Shown here piece after piece: positions 1,744-28,300 of a stretch of DNA of 64,000 nt. How positions within the stretch are numbered: position 1 is the first letter of the stretch; every line of letters begins with the position of its first letter. Origin of the DNA: Eledone cirrhosa (Eukaryota); NCBI GenBank assembly GCA_964016885.1, contig OZ024740.1:419058001-419122000 (forward strand), read 5' to 3'. The notes under the pieces were generated by a model that was not told the origin of the DNA, searched no databases, and was given only the letters and a program-made list of their open reading frames with translations. Position numbers and translations under genes: made by a program.

Positions 1744-4130
1744 CTACTGACTGTAGCTTTGTTCTTGGGCAAAGCGGGTCTTCTGTATTACTGTGTAGCG
1801 CCAAAGATCTCGGTCCAGTGACATTGTCTTGGAGAGGTGTAAGTGTGTGAGGTCGGAATTTATCAAGTCGTCCCAGTTTTTTCTGGGTCTGCCTACTCCG
1901 TGGCTACTGTCTATTTTTATCGCCCTGCACTTTTTTATACAGCTGTCGTCTTTCATGCGCATCACGTGATCATACCAACGTAGTCTTCTCTCAAGTAAAC
2001 AACATCTGATTCCTCTTATTCCTAATTTCTCCCTTAGTTCATTTATGCTTTGCCGTTCATGTATATTACTATTACACATCCAACGGAGCATGCAAGCTTC
2101 GTTCCTCTCCAGTCTGCGTATATCCTCTGCACACAATGCCCAGGTCTCACTGCCATGTAATATTGCTGTTCGTATGCAGGTATCATACAGCCTGCCTTTC
2201 ATTTTTAGAGAGAACCCTTTAGCGGACAATAGTGGTATTAGCTCTCTGAACTTTTTCCATCCCGTTCTGACTCTAGCTACTGTACTTTCAGAGCACCCTC
2301 CACCACTGCTGATTTTGTCACCCAGGTAACAGAAGGTGTCCACTATTTCTGTAGAACCATCTGTGCAATGGAATGAGCTAGTATTCTGTGGGCACTTGCT
2401 GCTACTTATTGCACCAGAGCACCGGCCACATATAAAATCTATATTATTAGTTAGCTTACCTGTGATCCCACTACATCTTTTATGCACCCATACTTTGCAT
2501 TTGGGACATAAAATGGAGTTTCTGCCTACTCCTTTCCTACACACTGAACATGGCCATTTCCCAGATGGGACCAGTGCCCTATTTTCCTTCCTACAAACTA
2601 GAACTTTAGTCTTAGACAGGTTAATTTTGAGGCCTTTTGATTCTAGGCCATGCTTCCATGTTTGGAATTTCTTCTCTAGTTCAGCCATTGATTCAGCTAT
2701 GAGTGTTAGATCATCTGCATATAGAAGTTCCCATGGGCAGCCGGTCTTGAACTCCTCTGTTATAGCCTGAAGGGCAATAATAAATAGTAGGGGGCTAAGG
2801 ACGGAGCCCTGATGAACACCAACTTTTACGCTAAATTCGTCACTATATTCGTTGTTATTTCTAACCTTGCTGACTGTTTCTTTATACATGGCTTGTATAG
2901 CTCTCACAAGCCATTCATCAACACCTAGTTTTCTAAGGGCCCACCAGATAATCGAGCGGGGGACTCTGTCAAAGCTTTCTCCAAGTCAACAAAAGCTAAG
3001 TATAGGGGTTTACTTTTAGCTAGGTACTTCTCCTGTAGTTGTCGTACAATGAAAAGAGCATCTGTTGTACTTTTACCTGACACAAACCCGAACTGCATTT
3101 CATCTAGATCAATTCGCTCTCTGATTAGTTGCGCTATAACTTTGTCTGTGACCTTCATGACCTGGTCGATTAATTTAATGCCTCTATAGTTTCCCCTATC
3201 TAGGGCATCTCCTTTACCCTTGTAGCAGTTAATGATGATGATGCTGCGCCAGTCCTTCGGAACGACCCCATTCTGTATGACTTGGTTAACTATGCGGGTG
3301 ACCATGGTGTGTCCCACCGTGCCAGATGCTTTCAGCATTTCAGAACTATTTCCAAAGGCCCAGCCGCCTTGCCTGTCTTCATGTCTTTGATCGCCTTACT
3401 TATTATACTACCTTCAACTTGCACTGCTGGTCCCTCTATTGGATCGATGTGGGGGAGACTGTCTTTCTCCCAATTATTCTCCTCATTTAGTAGCCTTTCG
3501 TAGTGACACTTCCAAGCTACCTTCTTATCAGTGTCAGTGATGGCAAGTACACCATCATCATTAAGGACACACTTCTTCCCGACAATATCACGGTTTTCCT
3601 TGACACATTGCCTAGCAATCCTGAACACCTCACGTTTTTGGTCCTCGCGTTGTAGAACATGCTTGAAATTTCTGTCCTCTGCTTCTCTTCTTGCGAAGTA
3701 CACTTGTCTCCTAGCTTCCCTCCTGGCCACTTGATAGTCTTCTCTACTTCTCCCATCCCGCCATGCTTTCCAAGCCTGCTTTTTGGCCTTGATTGACTCC
3801 TCCACCTTACTGTTCCACCACCAAGTTACTCTCCTCCTGCCTATAGGTTTGCTCCAGCCACAGGTTTCATCTGTCACCTTCAGCAGGTTAGCTTTCAGGA
3901 ATTCCCACTGTTCCTCTATATTGTACGACTCTAATTGCTCTTCCTTACTATCAAAAGCATCAAGTAATATGCTTTTAAATATTTACTGGCTGTGGGGTCC
4001 TTTAACTTCCATATTTTTCTCCTGAGGATAGTCCTCTTCTGTTGTCGAGTACTCTGGCATGTTCCCCTGATCTATAGGTGATCAAGTGATTGTCTCGTTT
4101 CTTGAAATTAGTGTTACAGATAGTTAGGTT
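1744..4130 (-). pseudogene. RTE ORF 3' part (linker, RT, Cys-rich insert, C-terminus), frameshifted
   Basis: ORF pieces 3332-3877, 2925-3338 and 1744-2907 are collinear parts of one RT polyprotein. The APE C-terminus appears deleted near 4055, where ITYRSGEHA joins the linker. Confidence 0.9.
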
Positions 4131-15856: not shown

Positions 15857-18800
15857 TTAGGTCAGTGTTGTTTGTTTGGTGTTGTTGTTGTTCCACTCAT
15901 TCTTTCTGTTTAGCTTTGGTCTTCTAATTTCTATTTCACTGGCCTCTCTGATTTGCCTATCTGCTGGGTCATTCCTATGTTTAGATATTATTCTAATTTC
16001 TATGTTGTCTATGTTACCGTCATGTTGTTGTCTAGCATGTTCGTATAGTACTGACCCGTTTTTTCGTCCTTTTAGTTCCCCCCAGTGTTGGTCTATCCTT
16101 TCACCTATGCTACGAGCTGTCTCACCTATGTATGTTGTTGTCGTGTTTCTGCAAGTACCCTCTGTACATCTTATGCTATAGACTACGTTTCTAGTTTTAC
16201 AGTTTATCCGGGGGTTCACCTTACATATGATACATTTCCTATTGGTACAGTGGGTTTTCTTAAAAGGGTAGGTTTTGCTGATCAGGGATTTTATGGTGGT
16301 TCCTGGCTTTTCTACCACCTTTATTTTTAAGTGGGTCTTTCTCAGGGCCTTTCTACACTGGTTAGCTAATTTCCCTCCAGGGGTGGCGTCTACAAACATG
16401 ACACTCTGATATCTCTGGTTGTCGTACCATGATGTGGCCTTCCCTATCTTATGTCTAGCCCTATCTAAGCTATTCCATGATTTGCTCCTGTATAGTGGGC
16501 AAATTCCTTTCATGTCCAGTTCTATGAGGGTCTTATACTTTTCCATGGCTCCTTCGTATACTCTGACTCTGTCTCTTTGGTTGTAGCCAGAGAACTGCAT
16601 GCGGTTGATGAAGTGTTGGATGTGTCCTTCCATTTCTGTTGGGTCGCACATGCTGGACACATTCTTCATCACTCGTACCAAATCTGCGATCAGAATATTA
16701 AACTTAGCACTACTGGACATTGCTGAGTTTTTGAGTATCAGGTATTTGGAGGCCATGGGTTTAGCATAGTGTGAGTGGAGAATTTGGGCTCTCTCGTCTA
16801 TAGTGTTAATCCAGAGTTCTGTGTCTAATACAGGTAGTCTATTGTTAGGGTGTTTGGAAGGGAAGTCTATAGTTACAGTTATACTCTGGTGTATGGAATT
16901 AGCTATCTGCTGGATGCTTTCCATCGTGCTACGTTCTAAATCAAACTTGTTAGTGCTCTCTAGTGGGGGTGTTCTTATAACTATATTGATATCGTCTACA
17001 TAACGAGAGTACATGATGAGGTCTATGGAGCTTTCATTAAGGAGATCTTTAAGTCTCCTTTCCCACCATACCATGAAAAGGTTGGCAACATCACCAGCTA
17101 TGCTGACGCCGATGGCTGCTCCCTCATTTTGGGTGTAGATTTTCTCATTGAACTTAAATATGTGGCCCTTTAGGGTAGTTTTGATACTAGCCCCTATTGC
17201 ATGTGCGACCATTTTTCTTACCTGATCAGTGTTTTGGGGGGTCAGTATAGCTTTGGTCCACCCAATCCACCTTCCTATGGGAGTCTTTTTAGCCATTGAG
17301 GTTATGGTGGGGGGTCTACCTCTTATAGGTCTACTAGGGCAGAAACATCTAAGGTCATGGCTGTCTAGGTAGTCAGTGTCGTAGGTAAGTCTAAGTAGGA
17401 GGCCCAGTTCGTCTGTGTCGACGTCGCAGAACTCCACCTCACTCTCAATGATCATCTCCACACATCTTTTCACAGCAAAATCAATGTTAATGGATGGGTA
17501 CAGTGACACCACATCCATGCTGCCTATTATGCAGTTGGATAGGCTCCTGTTTTTGTTGCACTCACTGATTCTGCTGAGGAGGTCCTCTGTACTTTCACAT
17601 ACATCTGGGGACATCTTGATTATGGGGCGTATAACCATTGAGAGGAAGTAGGAGATCCTGTAGTTGCTAGCTATATTAGCTCCGCATACGGGTCTTGTTG
17701 GTGGTCCTGTTGTCGGGTCGTCGACTGTCTTGTGGTCTTTGCGGAGCCCATACAAGGGTGGTATGCCATTGTTAGACGCCTGGAAGTTGTTGGCAGTGCG
17801 TCTGCTTGGCTTTAGGATGTCAGTCCACATCATCATGTGAGCGTTGAGGATTTTTTCTCTCCCATCGTGTGTTAGTTGTGCAACTTCGCTCGTGTTGGTG
17901 ATGTGGGGTTGCATTGCCTCGATGTAGTTCGGCATGCTATCTATTGACATCCTACCAGACTTATCTGTGGGTAGACACACTACCTCACCATCCCTTGTGC
18001 GCTGCTTGAGGCTAACCAAGCCTTCTACAGGTTTTATCCCAAGTTGTTGGGCCTCTGGTCTGCTCTGTCTCATAGTGTACCTGTCTACTACTTGTCTAAT
18101 CTTATTTCTAGCTATGGTGAACTGTGCCTCCGTCTCGTCATCTATTTGCTGTGGTATGCAAACTCTTTTATTAAAGGGTAACCTCGTAGGATAGATATTA
18201 CCCATCTTATATGTTTTGTCAGCTGGGTTGAAAAATAGTTTCTCTAAGGGGTTGTCGTTATTTCTATCGTCATAGTTGTGTGTGTTGCTATTATTGTTAT
18301 CATGGTGGTTGTTGTTGTTTCTATCATTAGCATTAATATTATTATTGTTATGATTGCTAGATGTATTGTTGTTTACTTCACCGTTATTGTTGTTGTTGTT
18401 ACTGCTATTTCTACCATTGTGGTTGTTACTATTATTATGTTTCTTGTTTTTGTTGATGTTGCTACATGTACTATTTCCATTATTACCACTGTGGTTATTG
18501 TTGTTGTTGTTGTTCGTATTGTTACCGTTATTACTACTGTGGTCACTGTTGCTGTGTCTGTGGTTAACGTTTCTATTATTATTATTATTGTGGTTGTTGT
18601 TGTTCTGTCTATCGCTAGTATTATTACCATTATCACTATTTCTCACTTTCCTGCCATTGTTATGGTTATGGCTGTTATTTCTATACCCAGAGTTATTGTT
18701 TATATTACTACTACCGTTATTATTGTTGTTGTTGTTTACCTTTGCATTCCAACGTATTTTTGTGAAACACTTTTCCAGCTCCGTTTTGCATTCCATAGGG

Positions 18801-19123
18801 TTAATCTTTTTGTAGATGGCAAATTTTGGTGGTAACTTTAGGATTTGTTGTTCTTGTTCACTGATTAAAGTGTTCCCATAGATATTTACTGTGTGGTCAT
18901 TGGTAAATTCTTCCGGTAGTTTTACATCACTCATACGGATGTTGTCGATGTTATCTGGGTATTTTTGAGAATATTCGATTTTCCTTTCTTGTAGTTTTTT
19001 CTTATTCATCCATTCTAATTTCTTCTTGAAATGCCTACAGCATTCGTTTTGAGCATATTTCGTTTCGCGTCGGATGACGCTCATGAAGTCATCTCTCTCG
19101 TTTGCTGTGATGAGATTTCTCAA
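15857..19123 (-). CDS. Penelope-like RT + GIY-YIG endonuclease, 5'-truncated at the inversion junction
   Basis: LPTDKSG, LYGLRKDHK, TRPVC, SMDVVSLY, QNEGAAIG, RYVDD, LPVLD; Cys linker CTNRKCIIC; VVYSIRC..YIGETAR..ER..QH..E..LN; 1088 codons open. Confidence 0.92.
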   Translation of the reverse strand: MRNLITANERDDFMSVIRRETKYAQNECCRHFKKKLEWMNKKKLQERKIEYSQKYPDNIDNIRMSDVKLPEEFTNDHTVNIYGNTLISEQEQQILKLPPKFAIYKKINPMECKTELEKCFTKIRWNAKVNNNNNNNGSSNINNNSGYRNNSHNHNNGRKVRNSDNGNNTSDRQNNNNHNNNNNRNVNHRHSNSDHSSNNGNNTNNNNNNNHSGNNGNSTCSNINKNKKHNNSNNHNGRNSSNNNNNNGEVNNNTSSNHNNNNINANDRNNNNHHDNNNSNTHNYDDRNNDNPLEKLFFNPADKTYKMGNIYPTRLPFNKRVCIPQQIDDETEAQFTIARNKIRQVVDRYTMRQSRPEAQQLGIKPVEGLVSLKQRTRDGEVVCLPTDKSGRMSIDSMPNYIEAMQPHITNTSEVAQLTHDGREKILNAHMMMWTDILKPSRRTANNFQASNNGIPPLYGLRKDHKTVDDPTTGPPTRPVCGANIASNYRISYFLSMVIRPIIKMSPDVCESTEDLLSRISECNKNRSLSNCIIGSMDVVSLYPSINIDFAVKRCVEMIIESEVEFCDVDTDELGLLLRLTYDTDYLDSHDLRCFCPSRPIRGRPPTITSMAKKTPIGRWIGWTKAILTPQNTDQVRKMVAHAIGASIKTTLKGHIFKFNEKIYTQNEGAAIGVSIAGDVANLFMVWWERRLKDLLNESSIDLIMYSRYVDDINIVIRTPPLESTNKFDLERSTMESIQQIANSIHQSITVTIDFPSKHPNNRLPVLDTELWINTIDERAQILHSHYAKPMASKYLILKNSAMSSSAKFNILIADLVRVMKNVSSMCDPTEMEGHIQHFINRMQFSGYNQRDRVRVYEGAMEKYKTLIELDMKGICPLYRSKSWNSLDRARHKIGKATSWYDNQRYQSVMFVDATPGGKLANQCRKALRKTHLKIKVVEKPGTTIKSLISKTYPFKKTHCTNRKCIICKVNPRINCKTRNVVYSIRCTEGTCRNTTTTYIGETARSIGERIDQHWGELKGRKNGSVLYEHARQQHDGNIDNIEIRIISKHRNDPADRQIREASEIEIRRPKLNRKNEWNNNNTKQTTLT

Positions 19124-20916
19124 TGGTTATACGCCCCATAATCAAGATGTCCCCAGATGTATGTGAAAGTACAGAGGACCTCCTCAGCAGAATCAGTGAG
19201 TGCAACAAAAACAGGAGCCTATCCAACTGCATAATAGGCAGCATGGATGTGGTGTCACTGTACCCATCCATTAACATTGATTTTGCTGTGAAAAGATGTG
19301 TGGAGATGATCATTGAGAGTGAGGTGGAGTTCTGCGACGTCGACACAGACGAACTGGGCCTCCTACTTAGACTTACCTACGACACTGACTACCTAGACAG
19401 CCATGACCTTAGATGTTTCTGCCCTAGTAGACCTATAAGAGGTAGACCCCCCACCATAACCTCAATGGCTAAAAAGACTCCCATAGGAAGGTGGATTGGG
19501 TGGACCAAAGCTATACTGACCCCCCAAAACACTGATCAGGTAAGAAAAATGGTCGCACATGCAATAGGGGCTAGTATCAAAACTACCCTAAAGGGCCACA
19601 TATTTAAGTTCAATGAGAAAATCTACACCCAAAATGAGGGAGCAGCCATCGGCGTCAGCATAGCTGGTGATGTTGCCAACCTTTTCATGGTATGGTGGGA
19701 AAGGAGACTTAAAGATCTCCTTAATGAAAGCTCCATAGACCTCATCATGTACTCTCGTTATGTAGACGATATCAATATAGTTATAAGAACACCCCCACTA
19801 GAGAGCACTAACAAGTTTGATTTAGAACGTAGCACGATGGAAAGCATCCAGCAGATAGCTAATTCCATACACCAGAGTATAACTGTAACTATAGACTTCC
19901 CTTCCAAACACCCTAACAATAGACTACCTGTATTAGACACAGAACTCTGGATTAACACTATAGACGAGAGAGCCCAAATTCTCCACTCACACTATGCTAA
20001 ACCCATGGCCTCCAAATACCTGATACTCAAAAACTCAGCAATGTCCAGTAGTGCTAAGTTTAATATTCTGATCGCAGATTTGGTACGAGTGATGAAGAAT
20101 GTGTCCAGCATGTGCGACCCAACAGAAATGGAAGGACACATCCAACACTTCATCAACCGCATGCAGTTCTCTGGCTACAACCAAAGAGACAGAGTCAGAG
20201 TATACGAAGGAGCCATGGAAAAGTATAAGACCCTCATAGAACTGGACATGAAAGGAATTTGCCCACTATACAGGAGCAAATCATGGAATAGCTTAGATAG
20301 GGCTAGACATAAGATAGGGAAGGCCACATCATGGTACGACAACCAGAGATATCAGAGTGTCATGTTTGTGGACGCCACCCCTGGAGGGAAATTAGCTAAC
20401 CAGTGTAGAAAGGCCCTGAGAAAGACCCACTTAAAAATAAAGGTGGTAGAAAAGCCAGGAACCACCATAAAATCCCTGATCAGCAAAACCTACCCTTTTA
20501 AGAAAACCCACTGTACCAATAGGAAATGTATCATATGTAAGGTGAACCCCCGGATAAACTGTAAAACTAGAAACGTAGTCTATAGCATAAGATGTACAGA
20601 GGGTACTTGCAGAAACACGACAACAACATACATAGGTGAGACAGCTCGTAGCATAGGTGAAAGGATAGACCAACACTGGGGGGAACTAAAAGGACGAAAA
20701 AACGGGTCAGTACTATACGAACATGCTAGACAACAACATGACGGTAACATAGACAACATAGAAATTAGAATAATATCTAAACATAGGAATGACCCAGCAG
20801 ATAGGCAAATCAGAGAGGCCAGTGAAATAGAAATTAGAAGACCAAAGCTAAACAGAAAGAATGAGTGGAACAACAACAACACCCAAACAAACAACACTGA
20901 CCTAAGAGAAGTATAA
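19123..20916 (+). CDS. Duplicated 3' half of the same RT/GIY-YIG ORF
   Basis: Protein identical to the C-terminal ~590 aa of 15857-19123 except for a terminal 1-bp indel. Confidence 0.85.
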   Translation: MVIRPIIKMSPDVCESTEDLLSRISECNKNRSLSNCIIGSMDVVSLYPSINIDFAVKRCVEMIIESEVEFCDVDTDELGLLLRLTYDTDYLDSHDLRCFCPSRPIRGRPPTITSMAKKTPIGRWIGWTKAILTPQNTDQVRKMVAHAIGASIKTTLKGHIFKFNEKIYTQNEGAAIGVSIAGDVANLFMVWWERRLKDLLNESSIDLIMYSRYVDDINIVIRTPPLESTNKFDLERSTMESIQQIANSIHQSITVTIDFPSKHPNNRLPVLDTELWINTIDERAQILHSHYAKPMASKYLILKNSAMSSSAKFNILIADLVRVMKNVSSMCDPTEMEGHIQHFINRMQFSGYNQRDRVRVYEGAMEKYKTLIELDMKGICPLYRSKSWNSLDRARHKIGKATSWYDNQRYQSVMFVDATPGGKLANQCRKALRKTHLKIKVVEKPGTTIKSLISKTYPFKKTHCTNRKCIICKVNPRINCKTRNVVYSIRCTEGTCRNTTTTYIGETARSIGERIDQHWGELKGRKNGSVLYEHARQQHDGNIDNIEIRIISKHRNDPADRQIREASEIEIRRPKLNRKNEWNNNNTQTNNTDLREV

Positions 20917-21488
20917 ATAAATAAGTAAATTAAATAAAATAAATAAAATAAGATAAATAAATACATACACAAGCACATAAACACACACTAGTCACCCAGC
21001 AGACACAACACTATACACACTAGTCACACATCACACATAACACTATACACACACGCAAACGCATGCGCAAAGAAGACAAAATAAAATAAGATAAACAAAC
21101 AAGCAAATAAATAAATAAATATATAGACAGACTGAACAAAAAAAATGGCGTAGACATACAACACAACAGGAGGAACAATGAATATAACACCACTGACGAT
21201 GTTGCAGATGTGCAACGAAAGATTTATGTAAATTATGTAAACTATATATATATGTGTTTGTCTATATTGTATCTGTATTATTTTTGACCGCCGGTCAGTC
21301 AATGGCAACATTGAGGACCGAGTAAGTTAGATCGCAGATATATATATATAAAAGACAGCGAGAAGCGAAAACCAACCAAATAGTGAGTGTGTTCTGTTAT
21401 TAATTCTGGCAATATTACGCAAATATGACCCTCCCCAAATATAACAATATCTGTTTCGACACACGATTTCATATAAAAAACCTCGCAA

Positions 21489-21534
<46 letters not shown>

Positions 21535-21581
21535 TATCATCATCATCATCATCATATATATATATATATAATATATATAAT

Positions 21582-21914
21582 GGACGCACATGGCTTAGTG
21601 GTTAGAGCATTGGCCTTGCAATCGAAAGGTTGAGTTGAATTCTCAGACTGGGCGATGTGTTGTTTTCTTGAGCAAGACACTTTATTTCACATTGCTCCAG
21701 TTTACTCAGCTGTAGAAATGAGATGATAGGGGCTGGGGTCCCTATCATTCCTCTGCAAAGTGGTCGTGGAAGTGTCACGGCAAAAAAGCACCCAGCACTC
21801 ACTGTAAATGAGGTTGGTGTTAGGAAGGGCATCCAGCTGTAGAAATCAAGCCAGAATCAGTTCCCGTCCCACCCTTGCAAGCAGGGAAAAGCGGATGTAA
21901 AATGAAATGATGAT
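21582..21914 (+). mobile_element. tRNA-derived CORE-type SINE with RTE-derived tail
   Basis: A box TGGCTTAGTGG, degenerate B box GTTGAATTC; CTTGAGCAAGACACTT..CTCAGCTGTAGAAATG resembles the MIR CORE; 3' part matches RTE UTR ~7143-7235. Confidence 0.85.
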
Positions 21915-21917
21915 AAT

Positions 21918-22024
<107 letters not shown>

Positions 22025-22025
22025 T

Positions 22026-22379
22026 AAGACACAGTTTCCTTTAGCAAGACACTGTTTCCTTGAGCAAGACACTTGTTTCCTTGAGCAAGACACTTTATTT
22101 CACTTTGCTCCAGTTCACTCAGCTGTAGAAATGAGATGATAGGGACTGGGGTCCCTATCATTCCACTGCAAAGTTGTCGTGGAGGTGCCATGGCAAAAAA
22201 GTACCCAGCCCACACTGTAAAGTGGACATGTAGGCGCCACGGAAAAAAAGCACCCAGCACTCACTGTAAATGAGGTTGGTGTTAGGAAAGGCATCCAGCT
22301 GTAGAAATCAACCCAGAATCAGTTCCCGTCCCACCCTTGCAAGCAGAGAAAAGCGGACGTAAAATGAAATGATGAATGA

Positions 22380-22383
<4 letters not shown>
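22026..22383 (+). mobile_element. 5'-truncated copy of the same SINE
   Basis: CORE segment with three tandem copies of gtttccttgagcaagacact, longer RTE-like tail, (atg)n end. Confidence 0.85.
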
Positions 22384-22421
<38 letters not shown>

Positions 22422-22670
22422 GTTATTCCAGGTTGAGTCGGAAGTAACCACAGTAAGTAAGGTACTCAATACATAGCAGAGTATAACAGTTTTAATATAT
22501 GAATGAATTTAATATATGAATGAATGAAACAGTTCTAGTCCTGTAGAATCTCATCTATATTAAAACTATATATATATGTATATATATATACCCATGCTAG
22601 CGTGGAAGAACGGACGTAAAACGGTGATGATGATGATGATGATATATATATATATACATATATATACATG

Positions 22671-23484
22671 GTTTGTTTACCCTAGCGTCCCCTTTATTTA
22701 CGTGTCCCAACGACTCTTTTTAGCCGTTGCTCGCACCAACCTGAGGTATATGGCCTTTAATGCGACGAAATGCCTACGACGGTTGGAAGGCCACTGATGA
22801 GGACAAACTTTTTCATATGTAACCCATTTGCAGCGCCGCAGCTCCATTATTATCATATTTACACATATATTCTTTCCTCCACTGCCACCGTCTTTTTCGT
22901 TCTATGTATCTTTACCCTTTCTAGCAGTCTCTCTCTCTCTGTTAGCCTCTTCCTCACCTTCCACTCACTCATTCTCTGTCACTACCTCTCCTCCTCCCCT
23001 TTCTTCTCGTTTGACCTGTCCGTAATCCTTTTCTCGCGGGCACTTGGCCAAGCCGGTATGAATTTTTTTTTCTCTCTCTCTCTCTCGTCTGCCACTTCAC
23101 AGAACTTATGTTTACCGAATTCGCAGACCAGACCCCTTCTTCCTCCCGTTAGACCTGTGCGAAATTCCTTCCTTGCTCACATTTCAACCAGGTTTGATGG
23201 TCTTTATTCTCTCGTTCACGATTCCACCGAATTTATATTCATAGAAATCTGGGACTTGTTTCCTTCTTCATCACTTTCTGTTGCTTAAACCATTTTGTTT
23301 GTTTACCCTAGCGTCCCCCTTATTTACGTGTCCCAACGACTCTTTTTAGCCATTGCTCGCACCAACCTGAGGTATATGGCCTTTAATGCGACGAAATGCC
23401 TACGACGGTTGGATGGCCACTGATGAGGACAAACTTTTTCATATGTAACCCATTTGCAGCGCCGCAGATCCATTATTATCATAT
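22671..23484 (+). mobile_element. Non-coding element with ~188-bp direct repeats (22671-22858, 23297-23484)
   Basis: Near-identical repeats 626 bp apart flank a pyrimidine-rich spacer; TA-rich flanks; repeats contain CTGATGAG and CGAAA motifs. Confidence 0.7.
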
Positions 23485-23558
23485 ATATACATACATATAT
23501 ATATATCATCATCATCATTTTACGTCTGCTTTTCCCTGCTTGCAAGGGTGGGACGATA

Positions 23559-23903
23559 TATCATCATCATCATCATCATCATCATTTTACGTCTGCTTTT
23601 CCCTGCTTGCAAGGGTGGGACAGGAACTGATACTAGCTTGATTTCTACAGCTGGATGCCCTTTCTAACACCAACCTCATTTACAGTGAGTGCTGGGTGCT
23701 TTTTTGCCGTGGCACCTCCACGACCACTTTGCAGTGGAATGATAGGGACCTCAGTCCCTATCATCTCATTTTTACAGCTGAGTAAACTGGAACAACGTGA
23801 AATAAAGACTCTTGCTCAAGGAAACAACACATCACCCGGTCCGTGAATTGAACTCACAACCTTTCGGTTGCAAGGCCAGTGCTCAAACCACTAAGCCATA
23901 TGC
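23559..23903 (-). mobile_element. CORE-type SINE, reverse orientation
   Basis: Reverse complement homologous to 21582-21914; extra tail stub ~23505-23555; partial older copy ~24780-24897. Confidence 0.85.
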
Positions 23904-24302
23904 ATATATATATATATATACAGTATATATATATATATTTTATTTTATTACATAATAAACAACACAATATAATAATATTGTGTCTATCTTCCACGCTAGC
24001 ATGGGTTAGATGGGAATTGTCCCACTTGAGGCAAGATTGATCGATCCGATTTGATGACAGTGGATCGACTGTCAATATATATATATCATCATCATATATA
24101 TACAGTAGGATCTTACATGCTAAATATGGGAAAATTTCAATCAACTGAGATTGTCCTCACTATTTGAAAACTAAAATCCCCTTTAGGAGTGTTTAGATTT
24201 AAAAACATCAAACAAGGAAGAAAACTCTGACAATTTCTGTTGATACAAATGTTTGGCCTTACAACAAGTGAGCAAGTAATAGGAAAATACATCTGTGTTA
24301 TA

Positions 24303-24485
24303 GGATTGGCAGTATCGGTAGAGGGTCAGATGCCATGCTTTGCAGCACAGAGTTATGTCCCTTTATGGACTGAGTTCAAATCCCACCCAGGTTAACTTTG
24401 CCTTTCATCCTTACAGGGACAATAAAATAAAGTACCAATGTATTGGGTAATTGCTGGCTTTGTACCAAAAGTAGAAACAATTATT
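24303..24485 (+). mobile_element. Second, older tRNA-like SINE family
   Basis: TGGCAGTATCGG (A box-like), GAGTTCAAATCC (B box), then AACTTTGCCTTTCATCC; related truncated copy ~25190-25305. Confidence 0.6.
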
Positions 24486-25305
24486 AACTTTATCCTTATT
24501 GTAGTCAAGCTCTTTAGCAGTACAGGTATGTGTTGAACTTGTCTCAATTTAACGCAAGAATAAGTTCATTTCATTTTCATTGCCAATTCTTTCAGGTAAA
24601 ATATGGATATTAAAACTTACCACCCCCTTTATCATAAAATATATCATATTTCATACCTATAGTGATTGATTAATTGACAAGATCCCAGACCTCATTTACT
24701 GACTGATCAATCAAATCAGACAAAGGAAACAACGTTTCCATTAGTCTTTCCATTGATGATACTATCTACCAGTAACAATTCCTTGCAGATGGAACAATAT
24801 AAAATGAAGTGTCTTGCTCAAGGACATAACACATCACCTGGCCCAGGAATCAAACTCGCAACGTTGGTAGTCCAGTTCTCTAACCACATGCCTTCACGTG
24901 ACTATATAAGAATCATTTACAAATGGAAAGATACAATGCAGTTATTAATAAGAAGAGTTGAAATTAATGTATGTGAGATTTCACAGCTCTAGCATCACTC
25001 CTTCAGAGGCTGACCAAGATACTCTCATGGAATGACAAAATGAGGTTTATTTTTCAACATAGTTTCAGGAAAGAAACAATGCAAATAAGAAGAGTTAAAA
25101 TTAATGCCTGCAAAATTTCACAGCTCTAGCACCACTCTTTATAGACAACCTATGAACTTTTCAGCCTACCCTCGTATCTACTACTAACGAGGCAGTGTGT
25201 TGGCAGGATCATTAGAACATCAGATAAAATACCTTGCAGTATTTAGTTCCAACCCTTTATATTTCTAAGTTCAAATTGTGCCAAAGTCAACTTTGCCATC
25301 TTCCT

Positions 25306-28300
25306 CATCAATATACTAAACTATACCACCCTATATAGTCACTTTAATAAACTATACCTACCCTATATAGTCAATATAATAAACTATACCTACCCTATTT
25401 AGTCAATTTACTAAACTATACCTACCCTATATAGTTAATTTACTAAACTATACCCACCCTATATAGTCAACTATACTATACCCAACCTATATAGTCACTT
25501 TACTAAACTATACCACCCTATATAGTCAACTAAACTATACCACCCTATATAGTCAACTAAACTATACCTACATTATATAGTCAATATACTAAACTATACA
25601 TACCCTATATAGTTAACTAAACTATACCCACCCTATATAGTCACTTTACTAAACTATACCAGACGATATAGTCAATATACTAAACTATACCTACCCTATA
25701 TAGTTAACTAAACTATACCCACCCAATATAGTCACTTTACTAAACTATACCACCCTATATAGTCAATATACTAAACTATACCTACCCTATATAGTTAACT
25801 AAACTATACCAACCCTATATAGTCACTTTACTAAACTATACCACCCTATATAGTCAATATACTAAACTATACCTACCCTATATAGTCAATATACTAAACT
25901 ATACCTACACTATATAGTCAACTAAACTATACCTACCCTATATAGTTGTAGCAGTAGCCTCCCTTGTTGTGACTCATAACCCCAATAGATTAACAACATC
26001 TAGACGGGAAGTAGAACCCTTTCTGTAACTTCCGGTCAGAACTCTATAAAACTAACAACTTTAAGTTCTGATTCTCTCATTTGCCCTTCCGGCGCCTGGC
26101 CTTCGCCAGGCGTCTCGCGTTTGCCTGGCAATCAAAACGGTAACTACTAACTTTGCTTCATTCTTTCATCTATTTCATTGACATGTCAACTATATTGTTA
26201 AATTGTTGATTAAATATTATACACACAAACTATGTCTCCTTGTTACATTCATACAACCCAGTATCTTCGCTATATTGGTAACCCTGACGTGATACGAACA
26301 CGCAGCCGTTCATCGCTATAAGTGGTCACCCCGAAAAAAGGAATAAATAGCAGAATCTGGTGTTGTGAGTAGCATTACGAATACACAGCAAATTTATTGA
26401 CAAACTATGAAAATACTCAGTAAAAGAAACGAACACACCACGCACATGTGAAATTTTCGCACAGACAGACTTTTTCTCTCACGCATCAACTAACTGTCGC
26501 ATTTCACGATATATATATATGTTTCTCGTTTCTTACAACGAACACTTTCAAAGAAAAAAAAAAAAAAAAAAAAAAAAGAAATTTGATATTCTTTAAAAAA
26601 CATTTCAACAGGAACATTTATTTTCGATGACCATTGCCTTTTTTTTTTTTTTTCATCGTTTTCTTCATCGTTCAAGTTTTTTTTTCCAAAGTTCACACCA
26701 ATAATTATGCTAAGTGAAGCCTTTCTTTTTCATCATGGTCACTTTCACAATTGCACTATCATTTTCTCGCGCGTTAGAAATATTATTTTTTCAACCTAAC
26801 TTAACCTTGTATTGGCACGTGTAGGCAGCACAAATTCTCGACTCACAGAGATAGCCGCACGCCAGAGATAACGTTTCTCGCCAAGGATTCTTCAGCCTTA
26901 AGCTATATTCTCCTTTAAAAATTTACCACGTAAATTTGCCGTTGAAAACTGCGCATTTATTCAGAATGCTTATTTCTTTGGTCGCTGGCCTCTTGACCCT
27001 TCCAGGTCAACGCATTCTCAACATCGACCATCAACTTCGGCTGTTATTTCTAGCACTTTGCGCAACTCATTTTTTCTGAAAAAAAATTTTTTACTGTGAA
27101 TTTAAACACCGAATACGCTCACTCCGCGAAACAACAACATCAACACAGCTTCACCAACAACCAAAACCAGCAGAACAAGCCAGAGAATTTATTTTTGCAG
27201 CACTCTTCCTGTGAGAAAATCCATTCGGAGGTTGGAAATTTCACGATATACCACAGAACAGAAACCACCTGCATTCATTCTCTGGAACACACTTTCTTTC
27301 CTGCTGTCATGTGATTGCACACCTGTGAACTATATTTTGTACATTTGAACTTTGAGCTCTTCACTTACTTTATTACATTGTATCTTTGGGTGATGGATAG
27401 ATAGATGTCCAGTCGTTCTCTGGCCAAGAGCGGTTGGCTACCTTGATATCTATCATTGATTTTTGCAAACATTCTTTTATCGTAATTTTCATGCCTGTTA
27501 CAACATTCTCGCCAACTTGCTACATATTTCATTCGATTTTTATATTCTAAAATTCTGGCGGGAGGTTATCTAGCAGTAGCCTCCCTTGTTGTGACTCATA
27601 ACCCCAATAGATTAACAACATCTAGACGGGAAGTAGAACCCTTTCTGTAACTTCCGGTCAGAACTCTATAAAACTAACAACTTTAAGTTCTGATTCTCTC
27701 ATTTGCCCTTCCGGCGCCTGGCCTTCGCCAGGCATCTCGCGTTTGCCTGGCAATCAAAACGGTAACTACTAACTTTGCTTAATTCTTTCATCTATTTCAT
27801 TGACATGTCAACTATACTGTTAAATTGTTGATTAAATATTATACACACAAACTATGTCTCCTTGTTACATTCATACAACCCAGTATCTTCGCTATATAGT
27901 CAACTAAACTATACCTACCCTATATAGTCAATATACTAAACTATACCACCTTATAAAGTCAACTAAACTATACCTACCCTATATAGTCAATATACTAAAC
28001 TATACCCACCCTATATAGTCAACTAAACTATACCACCCTATATAGACAATATACTAAACTATACCACCCTATATAGTCAACTAAACTATACCCACCCTAT
28101 ATAGTCAATATACTAAACTATATCCACTCTATATAGTCAACTAAACTATAGCTACCCTATATAGTCAACTAAACTATACCACCCTATAGAGTCAATATAC
28201 TAAACTATATCCACTCTATATAGTCAACTAAACTATAGCTACCCTATATAGTCAGCTAAACTATACCCACCCTATATATTCACTTTACTAAACTATACCC

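Follow-up and report, generated by a model that had tools for sequence, protein, structure and literature searches.

The window, the stretch of 64,000 nucleotides analysed here, carries on its forward strand a 5′-truncated insertion at 22671..23484, which amounts to 1.3 units of a tandem repeat (one 626-nt unit plus 188 nt). The insertion has an AT-rich microsatellite on both flanks and stops at what we call the long (tail) end. Two copies of a hammerhead-like motif lie within it, at 22731-22801 and 23357-23427; both were located in the sequence with the 626-nt spacing that the earlier note had given, and both fall within a 200-nt direct repeat of 97% identity. Over the first 188 positions, copy 2 departs from copy 1 four times, once within stem I. 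A 21-mer taken from the motif matched twice in the window and not once in 100 shuffles.

The hammerhead core is intact in both copies, in the order cleavage site, GAAA, CUGAUGA. Eckert et al. (2023) distinguish three hammerhead blocks, S, G, and C, and have validated a permuted type SGC (PMC10085705); in their terms, this is the order S-G-C. We wrote a structure descriptor with this order, a stem I of at least 5 bp, a stem III of at least 4 bp, and paired 10.1-11.1. It matched just two places in the window, both of them the motif copies, and it matched twice in 150 sequences of simulated DNA of 28 kb, both strands included. Among the 23 Rfam matches up to E=10 in 20000-26000, none belonged to a hammerhead family. 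On this and the comparative evidence below, the motif is probably a self-cleaving hammerhead in S-G-C order whose stem II is split after its first pair, carried by a repeat that Penelope-like elements likely spread.

Anatomy of the predicted ribozyme domain

All features described here are on the plus strand. The first domain opens with the 5′ strand of a putative closing helix, P0 (22703..22707), with a predicted partner at 22802-22805 in the window subfamily, and a leader hairpin (22708..22729) of 8 bp, with one A-C mismatch in that subfamily. A relocated strand (22731..22741) then supplies the 5′ strands of stem II′ (22731-22734 with 22762-22765) and of a 6-bp helix through which stems I and II interact (22736-22741 with 22781-22786). 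Block S (22744..22757) holds the 5′ strand of stem III (22744-22749), H17 (A22750), and the 5′ strand of stem I (22751-22757), from which a linker of 4 nt leads to the 3′ strand of stem II. Block G (22762..22775) is made up of the stem II′ 3′ strand, C11.1 (22766), GAAA (22767-22770), and the stem III 3′ strand. The block C region (22781..22805) begins with the 3′ strands of the interaction helix (22781-22786) and of stem I (22787-22793) and continues (22794..22805) with CUGAUGA (22794-22800), G10.1 (22801), and the 3′ strand of P0 (22802-22805). A tail of about 40 nt (22818..22858) spans the distance from the short to the long insertion end.

The second domain (23329..23431) has all positions shifted by 626, with H17 at A23376, a G-to-A change in the leader hairpin (23352), and an A-to-T change in stem I (23414); its terminal tail (23444..23484) runs into (AT)n. 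Cleavage is predicted 3′ of H17, at A22750 in the first copy, and a non-coding 626-nt unit RNA, linear or circular, would then extend from cleavage site to cleavage site (22751..23376). The earlier note had placed H17 at these same two nucleotides, and the four pairings that it called possible all exist. Its letters for stem I in copy 2 need correction: it gave AAGGCCA where the sequence has ATGGCCA, so that stem I of this copy consists of 5 bp followed by a U-U mismatch.

The unusual part of this architecture is stem II. Seen from the CUGAUGA side, it consists of the 10.1-11.1 pair only, and the rest of stem II, together with the stem I-II helix, is formed with the strand 5′ of the cleavage site. 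Eckert et al. assume that blocks are never interrupted, and their descriptor needs at least two further stem II pairs after N10.1 (PMC10085705). In that register, both window copies have none. The published descriptor misses the motif because block C is interrupted after N10.1, and the suggestion that such a motif would be invisible to standard descriptors is borne out for this descriptor, as far as the accessible text gives it, as well as for Rfam. The window motif could be described as an SGC ribozyme that was opened between 10.1 and 10.2, its ends joined by 2 nt; in the published ribozymes, as they appear in the accessible text, the ends adjoin stem III and the interaction helix.

Conservation and covariation among genomic copies

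We searched the genome (3.0 Gb in 1796 contigs) and obtained 11,383 exact matches to the core patterns, a figure that counts ribozyme copies rather than insertions and is a lower bound, against no match to the reversed-pattern controls. An exact 25-mer of the motif occurred 1699 times. Sorted by the nucleotides at 11.1/10.1, the matches are U-A in 8387 copies, U-G in 1917, C-G in 929, and C-A in 150, the last being spread as a mismatched form. The pair 10.1-11.1 can accordingly form (as A-U, G-U, or G-C) in 11,233 of the 11,383. The 150 C-A copies could also be read as having a bulged A before G10.1, similar to the inserted U in the SGC descriptor as its accessible text gives it. The element and its tandem junction were present as well in contigs of two sequencing runs, contigs which offer no view of ends or expression. 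No metagenome contig matched either of two patterns; among viral contigs, a loose pattern found at least 120 loci, and 0 of the 120 matches listed passed the descriptor.

Pattern searches uncovered subfamilies with identities down to 74-79% in the ribozyme domain. For an alignment we picked 41 rows by hand (40 distinct) so as to cover the range of subfamilies; two rows whose interaction helix carries a 1-nt insertion were excluded, as was one locus not caught by the extraction pattern. We tested the core as C3 U4 G5 A6 N7 G8 A9, G12 A13 A14 A15.1, and U16.1 H17, and it was invariant apart from N7 and H17. In the 40 distinct rows, H17 was the sole variable one among 12 core columns (A in 35, C in 5, both of them allowed), and 19 of 32 non-core unpaired columns varied.

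The helices changed in a compensated manner. In a first set of 178/180 copies, in which overlapping loci may be counted twice, double changes were present in stem I, stem III, and 10.1-11.1, and stem II′ and the interaction helix were invariant. Subfamilies found later do show changes there: in stem II′, 5 of 40 rows have U-A in place of C-G, and in the interaction helix, 8 of 40 have G-C in place of C-G. Each of these two helices has one double change, which according to the tree is probably one event each. Four pairs of stem I, one of stem III, and four of the eight in the leader hairpin carry double changes. Every helix that had been proposed thus shows a double change between subfamilies, the outcome of the covariation analysis over genomic copies that the earlier note had set as a check. 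Together with the invariance of the core outside H17, this speaks for its suggestion of a permuted, pseudoknotted hammerhead in a retrozyme-like repeat.

Across the alignment, 94.5% of the 1438 model cells were paired, compared to 28-47% in slid registers, and 102 cells held a double change, against 36.6 ± 6.6 in shuffles. The number of pairs with a double change (12) was not beyond shuffles (10.0; 52/500). Because the rows are related, we tested columns as well as rows: of the 36 model pairs, 12 vary on both sides, 2 on one side, and 22 on neither (P = 7.3 × 10−8). The hammerhead helices alone gave 8, 2, and 14 (P = 6 × 10−5), and slid registers gave P ≥ 0.09 at the same threshold. Mutual information placed the model pairs at ranks 6, 8, 26, 28, 39, 42, 43, 57, 212, 351, 746, and 973 of 1081, a ranking which does not single them out and is uninformative since shared ancestry dominates its top. 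Four of the helices had been named from a single copy before any variants were known; we took the leader hairpin and P0 from the very alignment on which they are scored, so their scores lean toward the model. Pairing is incomplete at helix ends: terminal pairs are often open in stem I (13 of 40 rows) and stem III (25 of 40), and the end of the interaction helix is unpaired, as C-C or C-A, in 6 of 40.

Relation to known hammerheads and competing readings

The closest known system is type SGC. As described in the accessible text of Eckert et al. (PMC10085705), it comes from metatranscriptomes and occurs in no genome of a known organism; it cleaves in vitro at 0.007-0.19 per min, needs all four helices, and has a stem I-stem II linker of about 3 nt (0-8 nt) along with a helix joining the other sides of both stems. 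The element shares with HRIMA-1 and its variants the S-G-C order, the short linker, the I-II helix, and the intact core. It differs from them, on that description, in the interruption of block C after N10.1, with the stem II 5′ strand and the interaction strand lying 5′ of block S, in its leader hairpin and likely closing helix, and in its more than 11,000 copies in an animal genome. With types I, II, and III (CGS, GSC, SCG) it has in common the CUGANGA, GAAA, and UH core and three helices around it, but its cyclic block order is the opposite one and its core would be pseudoknotted in a single strand.

The earlier note had held that the order fits none of types I-III. That is correct, the order being S-G-C and not the cyclic C-G-S, but it had already been described as type SGC. 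The block order is thus known and the split architecture appears to be new, with the qualification that the HRIMA-1 alignments or Craig File S1 could hold a split-stem case. In the literature searched, the term "type-SGC" appeared in one paper only, and neither an animal genome nor a retrozyme was reported to carry an S-G-C hammerhead, most subscription journals being outside the coverage. None of the terms tried for extra-helix hammerheads was found in PMC10162972, and the accessible part of PMC13725137 cites alternative permutations without detail. Non-circularly permuted ribozymes described so far, in the sources as far as accessible, come from environmental contigs plus one bacterial candidate.

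The reading we favor, with moderate confidence, is a monomeric pseudoknotted hammerhead that would cut multimeric transcripts after H17 into unit RNAs. One domain of about 103 nt would fold on its own, with stem II′ stacked on the single 10.1-11.1 pair and the chain after N10.1 turning into P0. The leader hairpin sits between a nearly invariant 4-nt strand (22704-22707) and stem II′, and the complement of this strand follows N10.1. In the most diverged subfamilies, P0, the leader hairpin, and stem II′ abut with zero nucleotides between them. They likely make up a four-way junction, with the 10.1-11.1 pair as its fourth arm. P0 is invariant or nearly so in the 40 distinct rows and has no double change, which is why we treat it as putative. 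The window subfamily lacks the A at 10.1 and a G pairs with C11.1, and P0 would there be shifted by one position. In pseudoknot-free partition functions, the nested parts (P0, hairpin, interaction helix, and stem III) were predicted in most rows; the pair probability of P0 exceeded 0.4 in 34 of the 41 and was 0.33 and 0.23 in the two window copies. For window copy 1, the minimum-energy fold without pseudoknots is a competing one in which stems I and III are missing.

Stem III and the interaction helix are tied to each other on both strands (by 2 and 5 nt) and are far apart in the canonical hammerhead fold, which counts against the single-strand model. The steric doubt raised in the earlier note, whether four helices can coexist in a monomer, is eased by the in vitro cleavage of SGC ribozymes with the same junction and is not removed by it; Eckert et al. 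note an equal puzzle for some of these ribozymes (PMC10085705).

This double tether would be relaxed, and canonical hammerhead topology restored, in a domain-swapped dimer, the other form that the earlier note had considered. Its partners would be two units of one tandem transcript or two separate RNAs, and each active site would combine S and C of one partner with block G and stem II′ of the other. One paper, going by its title, reportedly deals with a Penelope dimer. Covariation is blind to the distinction between intra- and intermolecular pairs, the units do occur in tandems of up to at least 21, and some retrozyme hammerheads act as dimers (PMC7229834). We nevertheless judge the swap unlikely: SGC ribozymes with a matching junction cleave co-transcriptionally, some with 0 nt between interaction helix and stem III (PMC10085705), P0 would close a single self-contained domain, the nested parts are predicted within one strand in most subfamilies, and stem III is not palindromic.

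More doubtful again is a conserved fold that cleaves marginally or not at all and is kept because the Penelope reverse transcriptase recognises it next to its two start sites. About 15 nt separate the end of the domain from the short end, and G-U and C-A occur at 10.1-11.1. Hammerhead cleavage was dispensable for insertion in vitro in the case of one Penelope element and its protein (PMC11167929), and of 9 predicted Xenopus retrozymes only 1 showed cleavage (10.64898/2026.07.22.740005). It is not obvious, however, why binding should depend on the NUH triplet, and the catalytic core is invariant across subfamilies that are 74-79% identical, with H17 only ever A or C. A chance look-alike in a repeat family, with covariation that merely reflects shared descent, could draw on the small number of lineages, the hold of ancestry on mutual information, and the missing Rfam match, but is very improbable given that in the model pairs the variable columns are found on both sides (P = 7 × 10−8), a pattern absent from slid registers, and that the four helices had been put forward on the strength of a single copy, ahead of any variants.

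If the hammerhead does cleave, then animal retroelements, too, make use of non-circular permutations, and do so in very many copies; blocks could then no longer be assumed to be uninterrupted, so that descriptor searches, the SGC one included, undercount hammerheads. We put forward a broader proposal tentatively, and think it somewhat less likely to be right than wrong as a whole: an S-G-C hammerhead that has its opening within block C, that leads into a four-way junction after one pair of stem II, and that acts as a monomer would not fit the six-permutation scheme, and no non-circularly permuted ribozyme would have been known from an animal genome before; it would drive a large Penelope-mobilised retrozyme family; and hidden permutations would explain some Penelope-like elements that appear to lack hammerheads (the "half-core" cases, Craig et al. 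2021). The subfamilies supply naturally occurring variants, both compensated and intermediate, with which the fold could be tested, and also a search idea for Penelope clades reported without hammerheads. The invariance of the core across diverged non-autonomous lineages bears on whether Penelope-linked hammerheads aid transposition.

The repeat, its spread, and its neighbors

We extracted 102 distinct tandem units of 445-806 nt, each with one ribozyme, and there was no conserved reading frame among them. A protein-coding reading was rejected, as a 172-aa frame was open that far in 2 of 29 subfamily-A units and had no Pfam match. A viroid-like rod was rejected as well: folded as a circle, the unit reached -104.9 kcal/mol, compared to -96.8 ± 6.8 kcal/mol for 30 shuffles. 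In most subfamily-A arrays the units agree with one another in their stem I variant, but the window and one other locus (L002) have one unit of each kind. The L073-L074 array (G000:C1:132609000-132623600) comprises at least 21 units, all on the same strand, with two variants of the unit frequently in alternation, suggesting a dimeric higher-order repeat.

Two fixed 3′ ends recur. Of 242 copies, 60 reach (TA)n about 15 nt past CUGAUGA (the short end) and 96 at about 55-65 nt (the long end), making 156 that enter (TA)n at one or the other; 85 continue, mostly into the next unit, and 1 does something else. Where insertions lie back to back, 23 of 25 have one long and one short end. The ends we met are of the Penelope type, with 5′ truncation, partial tandems, an inverted 5′ copy, a tail of about 40-50 nt, and (TA)n targets. 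The tandem repeat is therefore likely to have been spread by Penelope-like elements.

In the cycle that we propose, multimeric transcripts would be cut after H17 into unit-length RNAs, possibly circularised. A Penelope-type reverse transcriptase would begin at a (TA)n nick, from a point within the unit that lies about 68 or 108 nt to the 3′ side of the cut, and would copy across the ribozyme junction with a circle or an uncleaved multimer as template. Copying across the junction would produce truncated tandems with an inverted short-end copy on the 5′ side. Frangione et al. (2024) tied the tail of a Penelope element to two internal reverse-transcription start sites (PMC11167929).

The element resembles the animal non-LTR retrozymes (PMC7229834; 10.64898/2026.07.22.740005) in its non-coding tandems with one hammerhead per unit, a GC content below 50%, thousands of copies, and the link to Penelope-like elements. 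Those retrozymes carry type I hammerheads, as the accessible texts have it, which the element here does not, and their units measure about 170-400 nt (PMC7229834) or 51-972 nt (10.64898/2026.07.22.740005), against the 445-806 nt known here from DNA. Penelope-like elements (PMC8557442; PMC11167929) share with it the 5′ truncation, partial tandems, inverted 5′ copy, a tail at one end, (TA)n targets, and a ribozyme near the 3′ end. Unlike them, judging from the accessible texts, it has no ORF, its hammerhead is neither canonical nor minimal type I, and it has no homology to the autonomous elements tested. It would thus behave like a type-SGC hammerhead in a non-LTR retrozyme but departs from the former in its interrupted block C and from the latter in not having a type I ribozyme.

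The genome is rich in GIY-YIG elements (10,596 candidates, 150 scored). Among 50 GIY-YIG loci, none had an autonomous element ending in the ribozyme; two held a ribozyme, in both cases as a separate insertion past a (TA)n run. No recurring ORF-linked form was present upstream of 297 ribozyme matches. Individual candidates for a partner were rejected. L098 and L106 resembled pLTRs, but the neighboring element has its own 3′ end, with a (TA)n run in between. At L126 and L158, a ribozyme piece is joined to an element with its own canonical hammerhead. L019, L161, and L180 each turned out to be a truncated insertion, lying within or next to another element. In the 3′ UTR (about 1.4 kb) of the L106/L098 Penelope-like family, which has tail-type ends, there was no hammerhead core by eye or descriptor.

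Other repeats surround the insertion in the window. On the minus strand, 15857-19126 is a Penelope-like element with an open 1089-aa frame of reverse transcriptase and a GIY-YIG-like part, tentatively assigned to Neptune from a cysteine-linker feature. It lies back to back with an inverted partial copy (19114-20916, plus strand), and each pLTR of the pair has a minimal hammerhead core in canonical order (about 21191-21220 on the plus and about 15570 on the minus strand). A LINE-type reverse transcriptase fragment (1744-2985, minus strand) has a PHD finger directly after the reverse transcriptase (PF00078, PF00628). Copies of a tRNA-derived SINE, presumably cephalopod-like, at 21586-21905, 22073-22390, and 23505-23903 flank the element in inverted orientation, with arms of 275 nt that are 92% complementary. 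Such tRNA-derived SINEs, together with Neptune-like elements, characterise the genome as that of an animal. A satellite of about 32 nt occupies 25308-26012, and the 36 kb from 28001 to 64000 show a constant strong GC skew (about -0.73) and look like a long satellite array.

Elsewhere in the genome, at L150:2863-5190 (the L126 region) and L157-L158, a short-end ribozyme piece forms the inverted 5′ arm of another Penelope-like element, which carries its own canonical hammerhead at these two loci; the recurrence suggests template switching between two RNAs. At L158, about 390 nt upstream of the ribozyme and on the other strand, a small hammerhead in canonical order sits at the junction. Its stem II is built from both 4-nt strands of the putative P0, which may hint at how the permuted form arose.
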